The notes: generated by a model not told the origin, from the sequence alone. Positions 30,246-35,243 are shown, numbered from the stretch's first letter. The stretch is DNA of 64,000 nt from an uncultured Clostridium sp. (GCA_947648215.1 CANSMW010000003.1:56256-120255), one strand, 5' to 3'. Numbers and translations are program-made.

Positions 30246-31045
30246 AGATAAGATATATTTTTATAAATGATGAGCAGAGAAAAGGATAGATAGTAATTTT
30301 CTGCTTATGATTTATAAAAATATATCTTTGCGCAAAATCAAAGTTTTGTGCAATAGAGCATAGGATCAAAAATAGAACCATATAAATATAGTGTTATCTT
30401 CAAAATCTTGATATTCCTTTAATATAGCTACTTTCATCTTGTTATTCCAACAACAAACTATACTACTTTTTAATAAAATTTCCTTAAAATTGATTCTGAA
30501 GCTTCATTATTTTAGCTTATTCCTGGTTGGATTTTTTTCATTATTGTAACCTAATATTTTTAAAAAAAATATTAGAATTTAGATTATTTTTTTCAAAATC
30601 TCTAAAATCCATATATTTCAGTATTTCTCACGACTTTATCAACAACAAACTATATGTCTTTTTTATAAAAACGTCTTAAAATCGATTCTCGTGTGTCGTT
30701 TTTTAGACTTTTTTCAGCACTTTTAATAAATGCCTAAAATCAGCATTTTTACTAATAACTTTGTTAAATAAATTATTAAAATGTCTTAAAATCGATTTTG
30801 ATGCTTCATAATATGAAATTATATTATGAAGCAGTAATCTAAATTTATATAATGATTATACAAAAATTTTATAAAGTATGTATAAAATTATAATGCAAAT
30901 TTTTATTTACAAACAATTCTTTGAAATTAAATTTTAAAAATTAAACTTTGCACAAAATGAAAATTCGAAATTTCAAATATATCAATTTCTATAAATTTAA
31001 ATATTTTTGTGTAAACTTCATATATTTGGAAACAAAAAAAGGGGA
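30246..31045. repeat. AT-rich non-coding block A (paralogue of block B 32990-33790) with arrays of operator-like motifs
   Basis: 3 copies of cttaaaatcgattct-N-gcttc (30482, 30672, 30782), 2 copies of ctttgc(a/g)caaaat (30337, 30945), shared segments ataggatcaaaaata.aaccat and caacaacaaactata. Confidence 0.6.
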
Positions 31046-31075
31046 CCAAATATCGGTACCCCTCCCAAAAGAATG
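31040..31075 (-). terminator. terminator of flotillin gene
   Basis: aggggacc-loop-ggtacccct followed on minus strand by tttttttg. Confidence 0.5.
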
Positions 31076-31133
31076 TAGTGTGTGTTAGCTAATTAAAACT
31101 ATTTAGAGTTTTATTCGCATGAATAATTACTTG

Positions 31134-32867
31134 TTACTTTTTATCTGTAATGTTATTATCTGCCTCTTCAGTAGCAGACCCCTTAAGATTACCAAGACCT
31201 TTAAGCGTTGCATCAGAAAGACCAGCAATTTCATCAGTCAACGGTTTCTTATTAAGTGCCTTATTCTCTGCATTAAGAACTTTCATGATGGTAGGGATAC
31301 TCATAAGAGTATCAATAAAGCCATTTCCTGTTCCATTGTTAGCGATGCCGGGAAGGTTACCACCACCGATGTTGACAAACTCAGCATTCTGACCAATATT
31401 AGCCATAATCTCAGCAGTTGCGGTTGCAACTTTAATCTCAGCTTCAGTTGTGATCTTGAGCTTTTCAATTTCGAAGTTAACCTTCTCATAGGCAGCCCGA
31501 GCTTCAGCAAGGGCTCTTTCACCTTCTGCTTCTGCAAGCTTCTGTGCTTTGATACTTTCCGCTTCTGCAAGACCTTTAGCCTTAATACCTTCTGCCTCTG
31601 CTATAAGCTGTGCTTTCTTACCTGCAGCTTCTGCTTCTTGCTGTGCCTTAACAACATCAGCTGTAGCTGTACCTTCTGCACGTACCTTTGTTGCTTCAGC
31701 TTCAGCTTTATGCTTAACCGCATCAGCATCTTTCTGAGCAACAGTTACACGAGCTTCCGCTTCAGTTTTCTGAACATCAGCAGCACCCTGGGCTTCCTTA
31801 CGCTTAGCATCAGCAAGGCGTTCAGTAACAGCAATTTCGTTTTCAGCTTCAATTGATTTAACATTTGCAGTTGCTTCAGCATTGATACGCTGAGTTTCTT
31901 TTTGAGACTCTGCTTCAGTAATCATAACTTCGCGTTTTTTCTGAGCAGCAAGGTTGGCCTGTTCCTGTTTCGTGATTTCAATTGCGCCCCTATTCTCTTC
32001 GACTTCACGCGCACGTATAATAGCCTGAAGTTCCATAGCAACATCCGCGTTAGCCTGAGCAGTATCAGTCTCGACCTTGTTTGCAGCGATCATAAGATCT
32101 GTTTCCTTACGTTTTTCATTTATAGCCTGTTCAGCAACCATTCGAGCAATATCTGCCTCCTGAGATGCTACTGCCTCTGCTTTTTCTGCCGCAAGAGATT
32201 CTTCTGCCTGCTTTTCACGAGTAATACGATCAGTTTCAGCCTCCTTAATGTCTGCAGCCTTCTGCTTCTCTGCTTTATCAAGATAAGCAATGTTATCGAA
32301 ATAACCATTGTTGTCAGTGATGTCCTGAATATTAAGAGAAACGAGTTCAAGCCCCATCTTCTCCAATTCATCATCAACAGATTCCTGAATAAGCTTCTTG
32401 AAAGCTTCTTTGTCTGCCAATACCTGTTCAGGTGTCATAGATGCAACTACGTCACGAACAGCACCCATAAGAGTAAGCTTAACATCTTCAATGATACCCT
32501 GCTTACCACGTTCCTTGAAGGAGATAATTGCAGTTTCAAGCTTTGCTTCATCATGCCTGTCAGGACGAATCTGAGCAGTCCAGTCAACAAGCACAGGAAC
32601 TGCAGTTTTGGTCATAATTTCATCTTTGTCAGCCCTAACGGTCAATATGCAAAGGTCGAAAAAATCTGCTTTGCGGATAATCGGAATGACGAAAGCTCCT
32701 CCAGATATGATAATATGGGGCTTCTTACCACCGGTGATGATGAGAGCTTTATCAACATCTGCAATGCGATACATTGCTTTTGCAAGAAGAACAATTATTG
32801 CAATAGCAATAACAATAACAATGACAACTACTACAATAGGGATAATGCTGGATAAAATATCATTCAT
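31134..32867 (-). CDS. flotillin-like SPFH/Band 7 domain protein (FloT-like) with long A/E/K-rich coiled coil
   Basis: N-terminal TM helix, SPFH domain (ALIITGG...VDWTAQIRPD), ~300-aa EA-repeat coiled coil; visibly GC-richer codons (gca/gcc/gag) than neighbours; RBS ggagg 8 nt before ATG 32867. Confidence 0.8.
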   Translation of the reverse strand: MNDILSSIIPIVVVVIVIVIAIAIIVLLAKAMYRIADVDKALIITGGKKPHIIISGGAFVIPIIRKADFFDLCILTVRADKDEIMTKTAVPVLVDWTAQIRPDRHDEAKLETAIISFKERGKQGIIEDVKLTLMGAVRDVVASMTPEQVLADKEAFKKLIQESVDDELEKMGLELVSLNIQDITDNNGYFDNIAYLDKAEKQKAADIKEAETDRITREKQAEESLAAEKAEAVASQEADIARMVAEQAINEKRKETDLMIAANKVETDTAQANADVAMELQAIIRAREVEENRGAIEITKQEQANLAAQKKREVMITEAESQKETQRINAEATANVKSIEAENEIAVTERLADAKRKEAQGAADVQKTEAEARVTVAQKDADAVKHKAEAEATKVRAEGTATADVVKAQQEAEAAGKKAQLIAEAEGIKAKGLAEAESIKAQKLAEAEGERALAEARAAYEKVNFEIEKLKITTEAEIKVATATAEIMANIGQNAEFVNIGGGNLPGIANNGTGNGFIDTLMSIPTIMKVLNAENKALNKKPLTDEIAGLSDATLKGLGNLKGSATEEADNNITDKK

Positions 32868-32989
32868 GAACTTTTCCTCCATATGTCACATTGATATTGT
32901 TTACAGTTACCACTACATTACTTTTGTTTTGCAAAACAAAACTCTTATACAAAGTATACCATAAATTGAAAATTATGTAAAGCGGTTTG

Positions 32990-33790
32990 CCTATTTTTTT
33001 CAATAAATAGATATAGGATCAAAAATATAACCATGTAATATGGTCCTATCTTCGTAAATCTTGCTATTACTTTATATTAGCTACTCTCAAGCTTATTTTT
33101 TAACAGCAAACTATATTCATTATTAATAAAAACTCCTTAAAATCGATTCTGGAGCTTCATTTATTTTTAGTTATACCTGGTTTTATTATTATCATATATT
33201 TATATTATTACTTATATAATTTTTCATAAGTATTTTTAATAATTTTTTCTAAATTTCGCAAAATCCTTATATTTCAATAATTACACCATTTTTATAGACA
33301 ACAAACTATATGCCTAATTTTTAAAAACGGCTTAAAATCGATTCTCGTGCTTCGTTTTTTTGCACTTTTTTAGCTATTTTAATAGAGAACTACTTATAAT
33401 CAGCAATTTATAGCAGTTTAGTAAATTTCTATTATATATAATACTATATTTAAAATATTCGTATAAAGTCAAATTTTATTGATTAGATATAAAAATGTCT
33501 TAAAAACAATTTTAGAGCTTTATAAATATAAAATATTTTACTAATATATTATTACAAGATCTAATAGTAAATTTTAAAATATTAATACAAATTATCAATT
33601 TCATATATAAAAACAAAATATAACAAGTGTTCGTTTTTTGAAAAATTTATATTATAAATTGACTTTGCACAAAATGAAATAATTATATTTTATATTTATG
33701 CTATTTTTTTATTGTAAGATATTTTAGATTTATTAAAATAGTATTGTCTATTCCCCTTATTCCCTACTGTATTTACTTTTTAATATAAAT
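32990..33790. repeat. AT-rich non-coding block B (paralogue of block A)
   Basis: same motif order as block A: cttaaaatcgattct-N-gcttc at 33133, 33328, 33496; ctttgcacaaaat at 33662. Confidence 0.6.
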
Positions 33791-33840
33791 ATGGTATTAT
33801 TCTAGGGTAACTTATAGTATAGTTTTAGCAGAAAGGGTTG

Positions 33841-34136: not shown

Positions 34137-34256
34137 CTCGACTCCTCCTAACTTTTAACAAACAATGTTTAAGTTACATAAAAAAATACAATAAGCTCTC
34201 TAGCCTAAATTTAGCACATTATATCATACTTTATGTTAAATGTAAATGAAAATTTC

Positions 34257-34778
34257 TTATTTCCCCTTATTCCATTCCTTTAATTTTTCTTCTAATAATT
34301 TAAAATTAACTGTATTTTTTATATAGCCTATGTCCATATTCTTAATTTTCTGATTATAAACTGTTTTTGCATATTTTATAATCCTATTACTATTGTTATT
34401 GATATATCTTAACTCTCCAAGTATTACTTCCTTATATTTTAAATCAGTTTCATTTGATACCATATATGGTTCTAGTTCTGTTATAGGAACAGGTATCATA
34501 TTACTTATTCTTAAAGTCCCATATAAACGATTACCTTCATAAATTCTTATTATCGTTTTAGTATCTTTTCTAATAATCTTTTTATTAATATCAATATAAT
34601 CTGAATTTTTAGGCGAAGACATTGGAATATAATAATTGAATTCGTTTACAGTTAAAACAACGCCTAAATATTTTCTTTCATGAGTCCTTATTTCTTCTTT
34701 ATTGTCATAAATTTTATCATCAAATTGTCTTAAATAGTTTATGTATTTATCACTTACACTATATAAATTTAACTTCAT
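34257..34778 (-). CDS. ToxN-family type III toxin
   Basis: 173 aa; SDKYINYLRQFDDKI...KYLGVVLTVNEFNYYIPMSSPK...NMIPV...NFKLLEEK closely follows ToxN/AbiQ; RBS aaaggagagg. Confidence 0.75.
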   Translation of the reverse strand: MKLNLYSVSDKYINYLRQFDDKIYDNKEEIRTHERKYLGVVLTVNEFNYYIPMSSPKNSDYIDINKKIIRKDTKTIIRIYEGNRLYGTLRISNMIPVPITELEPYMVSNETDLKYKEVILGELRYINNNSNRIIKYAKTVYNQKIKNMDIGYIKNTVNFKLLEEKLKEWNKGK

Positions 34779-34794
34779 TTGCCTCTCCTTTTAC

Positions 34795-34833
34795 AAAAAT
34801 AAGAGAAGGCTATCACTTAAGATACCTTCTCTT
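34795..34833 (-). terminator. terminator between ToxI repeats and toxN
   Basis: perfect 9-bp stem aagagaagg-15nt-ccttctctt followed on minus strand by attttt. Confidence 0.6.
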
Positions 34834-34840
34834 GATTTTA

Positions 34841-34975
34841 ACTTTCTCATTTTAAAGGCTGTGAAACACCCGATTTATAACTTCCTCAATTAAAGGTTGT
34901 GAAACACCCGATTTATAACTTTCTCATTTTTAAATGGTAGTGAAACACCACGATTTTCTTATATTTATTATACTA
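34841..34975 (-). ncRNA. ToxI-like antitoxin RNA: ~3.5 tandem 38-41-nt repeats
   Basis: (plus-strand view) ggctgtgaaacacccgatttataacttcctcaattaaa / ggttgtgaaacacccgatttataactttctcatttttaaat / ggtagtgaaacaccacgatttt; minus-strand promoter ttgaca-18-tataat at ~34985-35020. Confidence 0.6.
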
Positions 34976-35243
34976 TTTTCTTGTTGTAGCTGTCAAGTAA
35001 TATGAATACAATAAATATATTATATTCTATGCATTTTTTATCAAAATATTATAATCAATTTTAACTTTGCACAAAATTGATTTAAGTCAAATAAATTTCA
35101 CGCTTTTTATAGTTTATATATAACCTTGAAGTTATCTTTTAGATTATTTCGATATCTTTGTCCCCTCTTCTCAATATGCATAAAAAGGAAAAAAGCTACC
35201 TCAATATGAGATGAGTTAACTTTTTTCCTTTTCTTAATAAATA

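Follow-up and report, generated by a model that had tools for sequence, protein, structure and literature searches.

Atypical inverted-repeat sites that are specific to one clade and lie at the replication terminus are known from the XerS/difSL and XerH/difH systems, in which the recombinase gene and its site are found close together (PMC5357621, PMC1914069). We analyzed a 64,000-nt stretch of DNA from an uncultured Clostridium sp. (the window; related stretches carry L-numbers), which contains a candidate site of this kind, here named D. It is located downstream of rho and is followed by a long non-coding block with repeated motifs, a flotillin gene, a second, diverged block and further cargo genes, up to a gene for a Xer-family tyrosine recombinase. 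On the sequence comparisons given below we favor, with modest confidence, the reading of the locus as a replication-terminus recombination region composed of a dif-type site D, a dif-adjacent module and a cargo array.

Several features of D resemble those of XerS/difSL and XerH/difH. It shares with difH and difSL arms that end in AAAA and begin with TTTT, and a Xer-like gene was located 0.3–1 kb from D in L021, L061 and L073, similar to the gene-site proximity of these systems. In contrast, the center of D has 6 nt compared with 11 nt in difSL, and the site sequence is unrelated. The recombinases found here (~325 aa) scored best, below cut-off, on XerC, XerD and XerA rather than XerS models, with loose linkage to the site in most genomes. 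Besides, D has an adjoining ~700-bp block with repeated units, which has no counterpart in the XerS and XerH systems.

A second group of related systems includes integrative mobile elements exploiting Xer recombination (IMEX) and other dif-bounded modules, such as the CTX, VGJ and TLC phages of Vibrio, the gonococcal genetic island, the pdif modules of Acinetobacter and LME-1 of Legionella. They share with our locus the presence of cargo with toxin-antitoxin genes between dif-like sites. The likeness extends to a filamentous-phage-like prophage beside the site and to an extra unit with an intact site at one end and a degenerate one at the other; similarly, an imperfect second dif stabilizes the gonococcal island. 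Unlike in IMEX and pdif modules, the repeated unit here consists of a long conserved non-coding block plus cargo, and the sites are in direct orientation, compared with the alternating orientation of pdif modules, with several boundaries represented by half-sites only. In Legionellales, the site was revealed by the elements that use it (bioRxiv 10.1101/2021.09.12.459815). Finally, the cer and psi sites and the Ter sites of tus and rtp are similar to the block of D in having non-coding DNA, near a core site or a cognate promoter, that binds, or in our locus would bind, extra proteins and so exert control. In cer and psi, ArgR/PepA or ArcA bind to an accessory region of ~180 bp on the XerC side, whereas the block described here is ~700 bp and has 2–3 repeated units of 45–75 nt.

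Site D and the strand switch

The inverted pair TTGCGCAAAATCAAAGTTTTGTGCAA had been recorded in a first-pass annotation of the window as an operator-like site at position 30339. The pair is present, but its actual position is 30328–30353, and it is better read as the core site of a tyrosine recombinase at the replication terminus. It is unique in the window, compared with 0.01 occurrences expected by chance. The + strand encodes the genes up to 30245 and the − strand those that follow, rho being the final gene of the left (+ strand) replichore as well as the conserved left neighbor of the module. Both GC skew and AT skew switch sign at ~30 kb, where cumulative GC skew peaks, and the polarity of GAGAAG flips at the switch (19:0 on the left, 4:21 on the right). 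Since gene orientation, skew and purine-rich words all flip there, as at converging replichores, we assigned the locus to the replication terminus. The position is not peculiar to this species. In 21 of 23 evaluable loci of other species GC skew was positive to the left and negative to the right of D, several of these loci having different flanking genes and some lacking rho.

The geometry of the site was also conserved. In 85 of 88 homologous D sites the 8-nt inner arms are 6 nt apart, with the consensus CATTGCaCAAAA-TcAAAG-TTTTGTGCAAa. Conservation in the 88 sites is higher in the arms, at ~2 bits per position, than in the center, which is TCAAAG in 47 of 74 sites and otherwise TAAAAG, TGAAAC, TGTAAA, TAGATA and more. 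Conserved arms around a variable center would be expected if a protein binds the arms and the center need only match its partner. Prediction of dif sites uses two criteria, a core that is palindromic and a location where the skew shifts (PMC3025954). A Xer target has two inverted arms of ~11 bp around a center of 6–11 bp, and D, with 11-bp arms and a 6-nt center, agrees with this geometry as well as with the location at the terminus. D is most likely the dif-type target of the chromosome for Xer-family tyrosine recombinases. The 64 kb contain one intact copy of D, one degenerate copy and several half-sites. The features between rho and the end of the second block are:

28905–30245, + strand, rho (Pfam Rho_N, Rho_RNA_bind and ATP-synt_ab; 446-aa product called in same-species contigs)
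30250–30328, likely terminator hairpin directly after the rho stop codon (inverted repeat with 32-nt arms, 91% complementary; identical in L146)
30327–30354, site D_A, the candidate dif-type site TTTGCGCAAAA-TCAAAG-TTTTGTGCAAT, an 11-6-11 inverted repeat of 28 bp
30355–31040, + strand, block A, with segment S, units A1–A3 and half-site K2_A
31040–31066, − strand, intrinsic terminator of the flotillin gene (GGGGTACCGATATTTGGTCCCC, then, on the minus strand, a run of T), recognized by inspection of the sequence
31134–32867, − strand, flotillin gene (Band_7/SPFH, Pfam PF01145)
32986–33004, D_B*, a degenerate copy of D (TTTGCCTATTTTTTTCAAT), seen in alignment with L146 and L077, where the site is intact
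33005–33790, + strand, block B, with segment S, units B1–B3 and half-site K2_B

The blocks and their repeated units

The two blocks had been described in the first pass as diverged direct repeats with the same motif order, each with three copies of a palindrome-centered motif, and this description was borne out. Alignment of 30246–31060 with 32980–33800 by MAFFT gave a mean column identity of 76%, and a blastn comparison of the window region with contigs of the same species that have both copies aligned block A with block B at E = 1e-70. The homology begins at 30355 and 33005 and fades at ~31040 and ~33790, respectively, which are the true extents of the blocks. The motif, M (CTTAAAATCGATTCT), occurs on the + strand in all six copies, at 30483 (1 mismatch), 30675 (0) and 30785 (1) in block A and at 33136 (0), 33331 (0) and 33499 (3) in block B. 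The perfect 12-bp palindrome AAAATCGATTTT, also noted earlier, lies inside the copy at 30785. With up to 3 mismatches, M had 16 matches in the window versus 7.1 ± 2.9 expected, and all matches with no more than 1 mismatch fell within the blocks. We found a second conserved element, P (ACAACAAACTATA), which had been overlooked, exactly 20 nt upstream of 4 of the 6 M copies. A third motif, K (ACTTTGCACAAAAT), was exact at 30945, 33662 and 35064, with a variant at 30325; it had 9 matches in the window versus 2.1 expected. K is a half-site, and its copy at the end of a block, K2, equals the left arm of D. The repeats and their motifs are real and local to the region, which supports the first-pass annotation on this point. 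Micro-open reading frames within the blocks have no ribosome-binding sites. The contents of the blocks are:

30360–30440, block A, segment S
30450–30462, + strand, P of unit A1
30483–30497, + strand, M of unit A1
30642–30654, + strand, P of unit A2
30675–30689, + strand, M of unit A2, then CGTGTGTCGTTTTTT
30785–30799, M of unit A3, plus a 12-bp hairpin at 30803–30832
30945–30958, half-site K2_A
33013–33095, block B, segment S
33103–33115, + strand, P of unit B1
33136–33150, + strand, M of unit B1
33298–33310, + strand, P of unit B2
33331–33345, + strand, M of unit B2
33499–33513, M of the degenerate unit B3
33662–33675, half-site K2_B

Two further observations concern the right ends of blocks. 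The segment 33749–33790 (TTCCCCTTATTCC...TAATATAAA) is ~75% similar over 40 nt to the 3' end of toxN (34260–34305), and may be a relic, if a weak candidate for one, of an earlier toxN copy right after K2_B. In L053 and L061, strings similar to TTCCCCTACTCCCTAC come after K2.

We then considered how widely the module occurs. One genome per GTDB species was scanned for CAAACTATA-N18-22-CTTAAAATYGATT. The P-N20-M pattern was matched exactly in at least 120 genome stretches, nearly all of them metagenome-assembled genomes of uncultured gut Clostridia, including Clostridium sp. CAG:343, CAG:780 and CAG:921. Positions beside the searched pattern were more than 90% conserved (agACAA upstream and CTCGTGCGTCGtTTTTT downstream), and in the scanned loci the motif always lay within 1–1.5 kb that had no open reading frames of ≥100 aa. 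Among the matches listed, rho was immediately upstream of the module in 43 of 120 loci. The order of elements after rho was the same across the clade, with D, S (...ATAGGA...), one or two P-M units, another M and K2, ~620–750 bp in total. Because this grammar recurs downstream of rho, D and its block are a conserved feature of the post-rho position and not an insertion. The earlier proposal of a ~5-kb accessory insertion after rho thus has to be revised. The blocks are not accessory as such, the site and block being conserved after rho in 43 species-level genomes and the module being present in at least 120 stretches. An outcome that the first-pass annotation had named as contrary to its interpretation, blocks conserved at the same locus in relatives with no motif enrichment, was found in its first part only: the position is conserved, and the motifs are strongly local. 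Two to four unit copies were the rule. In L031, L056, L093, L123 and ~15 further loci the first block unit is inverted (M-/P- facing P+/M+); in these lineages a divergent pair, ~140–220 nt apart, lies between D and the remaining units.

It had also been suggested that the region was a captured partition or replication-control region of a plasmid or phage, with iteron- or centromere-like sites, or a composite mobile element with long direct repeats. Direct repeats that flank a cargo gene, palindrome-rich motifs and a defense toxin-antitoxin nearby are what such an origin might leave, but blastn against 72,556 plasmids and 50,697 phages gave no match, no Rep, Par or transposase gene is present nearby, and the unit spacing of 110–195 nt is not iteron-like. 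Moreover, in 43 species among the matches listed, the module has a constant place in the chromosome, directly after rho. We regard this origin as very improbable, and the captured-region proposal was largely abandoned.

What the P-M units do was approached from the side of RNA. RNAalifold gave an empty consensus on both strands for the unit (113 distinct sequences), nothing in Rfam matched the whole window at gathering thresholds, and at E ≤ 1 the segment 30100–35300 had only one weak, irrelevant match. A structured RNA was rejected on the grounds of the empty consensus and the lack of a relevant Rfam match; separately, the candidate stem AAAAACGGC/GTCGTTTTT showed no covariation by eye. Small or unstructured non-coding RNAs, one per unit, with the motif as promoter or 5' end, would agree with the appearance of the units as promoter cassettes that have no downstream open reading frame, and with the 12-bp hairpin (30803–30832) that follows unit A3. 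However, there is neither a conserved secondary structure on either strand nor a match in Rfam, and the sequence 3' of the motif is far less conserved than the motif itself, which makes this explanation quite improbable.

We consider instead that the P-M units probably bind protein as DNA, because they are conserved as sequence and M holds the palindrome AAAATCGATTyT. Most informative were six loci from three lineages (L021, L079, L100, L119, L061 and L011), in which M is located 16–45 nt before the ribosome-binding site and ATG of Xer-like recombinase genes; in L021 and L061 the P-M unit lies, in a compact arrangement, between D and the recombinase gene. TAAAAT, which is invariant in M, makes a good −10 element, the 3' end of P gives a weak −35 (aTGyCT) at 17 nt, and the palindrome overlaps the −10 and the predicted start. 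Since M precedes the recombinase ribosome-binding site, TAAAAT fits a −10 and the palindrome overlaps it, the unit was read as a promoter/operator cassette. TAAAAT would be the likely −10 of a rightward promoter and AAAATCGATTyT the likely operator, so that the P-M units are putative promoter/operator-type protein-binding cassettes. The six units in the window appear orphaned, with no open reading frame downstream, and would probably persist as regulatory or accessory binding sites. A minus-strand promoter (a TATAGT −10 after a CiaR-like TTTAAG-N5-TTTATA) was dropped, because it has no usable −35 or TG motif and the functional recombinase genes are downstream of M on the plus strand. Comparison of M by eye with cre/LacI-type operators, CodY sites, ARG boxes and Spo0A boxes gave no convincing similarity.

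The fixed position of the units raises another question, that of polar protein-DNA barriers or platforms at the terminus, such as Ter-like fork barriers or SMC-unloading sites. Only two kinds of fork trap have been described, Tus-Ter in Enterobacteriales and their relatives and RTP-Ter in Bacillus, and such a trap appears to be absent from most bacteria (PMC10331603). The units of more than 100 genomes keep their position and orientation by the replichore junction, with 2–4 copies as the rule, and opposed sites, as required of a trap, occur in some relatives (L031, L093 and L056, by inversion of the first unit). The rtp and tus genes are autoregulated through a promoter Ter site (PMC10331603), similar to M in recombinase leaders, and XerD is reported to unload SMC at the terminus of B. 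subtilis (cited in PMC12322038). In contrast, all six units of the window point one way on one side of D, which amounts to half a trap, no Tus- or RTP-like protein was identified, and any likeness of P to B. subtilis Ter sequences is tentative. A barrier or platform function has a low probability. A broader and somewhat different idea, that P-M units (45–75 nt, 2–4 copies, always on the same side and in the same orientation relative to the dif-like site) may be the sites of a novel terminus-specific DNA-binding system of a large clade of uncultured gut Clostridia, is tentative and, on the sequence evidence, rather unlikely. Such a system could be a polar fork barrier, or an SMC-unloading or terminus-organizing platform, that is coupled to an atypical dif and whose site also serves to autoregulate a Xer-like recombinase.

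Probable gain and loss of modules at D-type sites

The two blocks repeat with a period of 2,653 bp. L146, a stretch from another sample, has an identity of 95% to the window in the 3' end of rho and of 98% over the part that runs from the ABC genes to the recombinase. It carries, in this order, rho, D, a single block of the B type, toxIN, ABC/GntR and the recombinase gene; flotillin and an A-type block are both absent. As L146 has one block and no flotillin, the window carries an extra 2,653-bp [block + flotillin] unit. The right arm of D (33005) is exactly the boundary of homology between the window and L077 or L146. D_B* has neither the inner left arm nor the center, and its right arm has 3 changes. 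The unit, which lies between D_A and D_B*, has no recombinase of its own, is flanked by an intact and a degenerate site, and is absent from a close relative with the junction at D, which agrees with IMEX, whose flanks are an intact and a hybrid site.

Block A is 86% identical to the block of L034 over the left 430 nt and 79% identical to the block beside flotillin in L154. Block B shares 95% identity with the only block found in L077 and 89–96% with that of L146; the toxIN module of L077 is 98% identical. Because each block is closer to blocks of other genomes than to the other, A and B are not a recent in-place duplication. In addition, [block A + flotillin] is colinear, at 79–88% identity, with an arrangement rho-NERD-K-D-block-flotillin-PHP-recombinase in L154 and L244. 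In L034, rho and D are followed by a block of the A type and by K2, in which the left arm is joined to a foreign right side; then come toxIN, a hybrid site and another block. The hybrid site, ...TCAAAGTTTTGTGCAAT, has a foreign left side followed by the center and right arm of D, and it occupies the position that matches K2_C of the window. The toxIN module of L034 is flanked by L-c-R' and L'-c-R hybrid sites, as is expected after the integration of a circle at a dif-type site.

These comparisons suggest a course of events in which the 2,653-bp unit of block and flotillin was added to the window, or lost from its nearest relative by D x D excision. In both cases the unit has its end-points in D-type sites, similar to a circle that is integrated or excised by Xer, and Xer-type recombination may have made the duplication. 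The window has two diverged copies of the module because the unit was added or, alternatively, lost in the relative. The decay of the second D and the frameshift in the nearby recombinase gene (see below) would both stabilize the tandem arrangement. We conclude, from the comparison of sequences, that [block + cargo] units are probably gained and lost by recombination at D-type sites, the mobility of the modules being inferred from these comparisons. The duplication could otherwise have arisen by unequal homologous recombination or replication slippage, with the coincidence of the end-points with D accidental. The blocks have long stretches of near identity in common, the 45-nt core of unit 2 among them, on which homologous exchange could have acted, and either A or B could be the ancestral copy. 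However, A and B are only 76% identical and each is closer to other genomes (86% and 95%), the right arm of D is where homology to L077 and L146 is lost, and L034 has the hybrid-site pattern; we therefore find this explanation unlikely.

The part of the first-pass annotation that held the region to be mobile or amplifiable fared well with regard to the cargo, which was gained and lost here (L146 has no flotillin) and whose modules are bounded by recombinase target sites. Taken as a whole, its local, real repeats and mobile cargo stood, and the accessory insertion, the plasmid or phage control region and the operator reading of the inverted pair did not.

Other mobile DNA is also found at the site. 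In L077 (JAAWJM010000002.1), an intact D precedes the B-type block, and immediately to the left is a prophage with a hybrid half-site 70 nt from D. The prophage (native positions 2300–7900) is inovirus-like, with a Zot-like ATPase (phrog_197) and a 61-aa virion protein (phrog_2186); its 298-aa open reading frame was guessed to encode a replication protein and has no PHROG match. Filamentous phages are the textbook example of dif use (PMC5357621). The P-M unit was also found in nine IMG/VR contigs, mostly near a contig end beside a Xer-like integrase and a 109-aa protein, and several of the nine also have D. Extra DNA after rho sits between rho and D, with a K half-site left by rho (L129, L154).

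Many genomes have operons of two tandem Xer-like recombinase genes followed by a gene for a conserved 109-aa protein, p109 (MKDLEVKFDTNNIHSVELNLLDGQVEIILRALELY...), which flank D or the block and always point towards D or K2. Such operons were seen in L012, L026, L043, L068, L081, L095, L098, L099, L111 and others, and in the viral L134, L136 and L139. p109 is absent from the window and had no PHROG or NCBIfam match. The layout recalls Tn554, which has two recombinases and a small protein. In relatives, D is also an attachment point for phages and other integrating DNA. Taken further, D could be only an attB for temperate phages and integrative elements that have Xer-like integrases, the blocks being leftover arms and the true dif lying elsewhere. 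The two-recombinase p109 operons and prophage-type contigs that adjoin D and the P-M unit favor this possibility, as do the loose linkage to a chromosomal-type recombinase and the dissimilarity of D to known dif. But an attB needs no special place, whereas D is exactly at the switch of skew and orientation in the window and at the skew switch in 21 of 23 other species; the block keeps the same side of D whatever inserts; and there is no canonical dif within 30 kb on either side of the switch. On balance we hold the attB explanation to be unlikely, and retain D as the probable dif-type site.

The recombinase gene and the cargo modules

The features to the right of block B are:

33838–34143, small convergent open reading frames of 53 aa (33838–33999, + strand) and 27 aa (34136–34053, − strand), with a hairpin at 34012–34060 between them
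34257–34996, − strand, toxIN module, with toxN (34257–34778), three ToxI-type repeats (34850–34949) and a consensus promoter (34996–34967)
35064–35077, + strand, half-site K2_C (ACTTTGCACAAAAT), which bounds the toxIN module and is embedded in AATCAATTTT...AAAATTGATT
35244–37266, − strand, cargo module of ABC-2 permease, 71-aa open reading frame, ABC ATPase and GntR regulator (Pfam; gene calls in L001)
37263–37298, + strand, K', a degenerate D-like site (ACATTGTACAAAAT-TTTTAAC-TTTTGTTGTA) that overlaps a TATAAT just upstream of the recombinase gene
37316–38288, + strand, Xer-family tyrosine recombinase gene, frameshifted (Pfam Phage_integrase)

The recombinase of the window is 84% identical to its orthologue in L073 and scores below cut-off on all of the NCBIfam XerC, XerD, XerA and XerS models. 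Compared with four orthologues, its gene has one extra C near 38158, which puts the last 43 codons, with the GH...Y catalytic tail, out of frame. The stretches L001–L010 and L141–L143 are from the same species and ~100% identical, so that they were uninformative except for confirming the frameshift; as the same sequence is present in two other metagenome assemblies (three in all), the frameshift is not a local error. A K motif is found 55–150 nt upstream of the recombinase gene in the window and in L015, L017, L107, L199 and L204, and in L205 the recombinase promoter has TTGCAC from K as its −35, 17 nt from TATAAT, so that K can have a promoter function as well. Among the matches listed, 13 of 120 motif loci had an orthologous type-A recombinase within the 8-kb stretch, always on the right and on the + strand. 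Of the 34 loci that had full flanks, nearly all have the orthologue oriented against the local skew, which matches the window and is no proof of closeness to the terminus.

Several observations weigh against the reading of the locus as a terminus recombination region with D as its dif-type site. D is not similar in sequence to described dif sites, and searches of the window for the dif of B. subtilis (≤7 mismatches), the dif of E. coli (≤8) and difSL (≤9) gave no match. The recombinase nearest to D is frameshifted, which would be costly if it were the sole dimer resolvase. When loci were chosen by recombinase homology alone, D, M or K was within 5 kb in only ~6 of 80, and most recombinase orthologues have their own promoter without M or K; because this sample, drawn from metagenomes, showed no tight linkage, a claim of a 'xer-dif module' is weakened. 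With regard to the cassettes, the consensus promoter scan does not call the M sites and their −35 is weak. The genome scan was selected on the motif itself, and the apparent invariance of the units is for this reason partly a matter of ascertainment. A few loci carry two D sites (L029 is one). Finally, either gain in the window or loss in L146 would explain the extra unit, and homologous recombination between blocks that are 76% identical could do so too.

The cargo between the blocks was correctly described as a flotillin gene of higher GC content (0.42 versus ~0.30–0.35 for its neighbors). The excess is mostly at first codon positions (GC1 of 0.61, the protein being rich in Ala and Glu), with GC3 at 0.30 versus ~0.20 elsewhere. 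The exact protein was found on 14 contigs. Homologues that are 65–91% identical occur in varied contexts, beside a block in L154 and L244 and in unrelated contexts in L241–L243. Dozens of homologues (P0002–P0057, 73–91% identical) were on contigs of ~2.0–2.9 kb, including ones of 2,653 and 2,657 bp. Such short contigs would fit assembly breaks at flanking repeats; the single one examined (L160) had no block motifs.

Downstream of block B, the convergent small open reading frames (33838–33999, + strand, and 34136–34053, − strand) and the toxIN locus that had been reported were both confirmed. ToxN (34257–34778, − strand) matched PF13958 at E = 5e-39, the three ToxI-type repeats of 38–41 nt at 34850–34949 correspond to repeat families D9 and D10, and the promoter at 34996–34967 (− strand) matched the consensus at 12 of 12 positions. 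The 27-aa reading frame (34053–34136, − strand) has a strong ribosome-binding site and is a truncated form of a 62-aa hydrophobic reading frame in L077 and L002. At the junction at ~34094–34096, 114 bp are absent from the window that are present in L077 and in the same-species L002; because this contig of the same species keeps the 114 bp, the junction is an insertion-deletion polymorphism within the species. At 30945, 33662, 35064 and 37263, K half-sites stand like borders of modules between flotillin, toxIN, ABC/GntR and the recombinase gene. Since the toxIN and ABC/GntR modules are also set apart by such half-sites, the region looks like an array of site-bounded modules. The half-site at 35064 lies in the loop of an inverted repeat, AATCAATTTT...AAAATTGATT (35053–35082), whose arms resemble the M core AAAATCGATT.

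Elsewhere in the window, a second ToxN-like open reading frame (15564–16079, + strand) is 29% identical to the ToxN at 34257–34778 (tblastn E = 1.5e-9), and is presumably the 'toxIN locus 1' of the first-pass annotation. The release-factor gene at ~25043–27390 was called as two open reading frames (PCRF, 232 aa, and RF-1, 84 aa, with a gap of ~78 nt; gene calls in L001 and L141), and the aspartate kinase in the same region is likewise in two (48 aa and 369 aa). These could be either split genes, pseudogenes or programmed events. A K-like string, ACTTTCCGCAAAAT, occurs at 26078, and ARAGORN found no tRNA or tmRNA in the window.

With regard to the biology of these organisms, we found no description, in the literature that was searched, of chromosome-dimer resolution and terminus organization in these uncultured AT-rich gut Clostridia. 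The locus offers a concrete dif candidate for them, unlike described dif in sequence, and the site is conserved in more than 80 species-level genomes. The adjoining block is as conserved as a structural RNA and yet has no RNA structure; no described counterpart was found. Flotillin contigs of the same species end within the flanking blocks, which are thus a cause of assembly breaks. On the comparisons presented here, the terminus would be a modular hotspot for the gain and loss of toxIN, flotillin, transporters and prophages, and this bears on strain variation in gut metagenomes.

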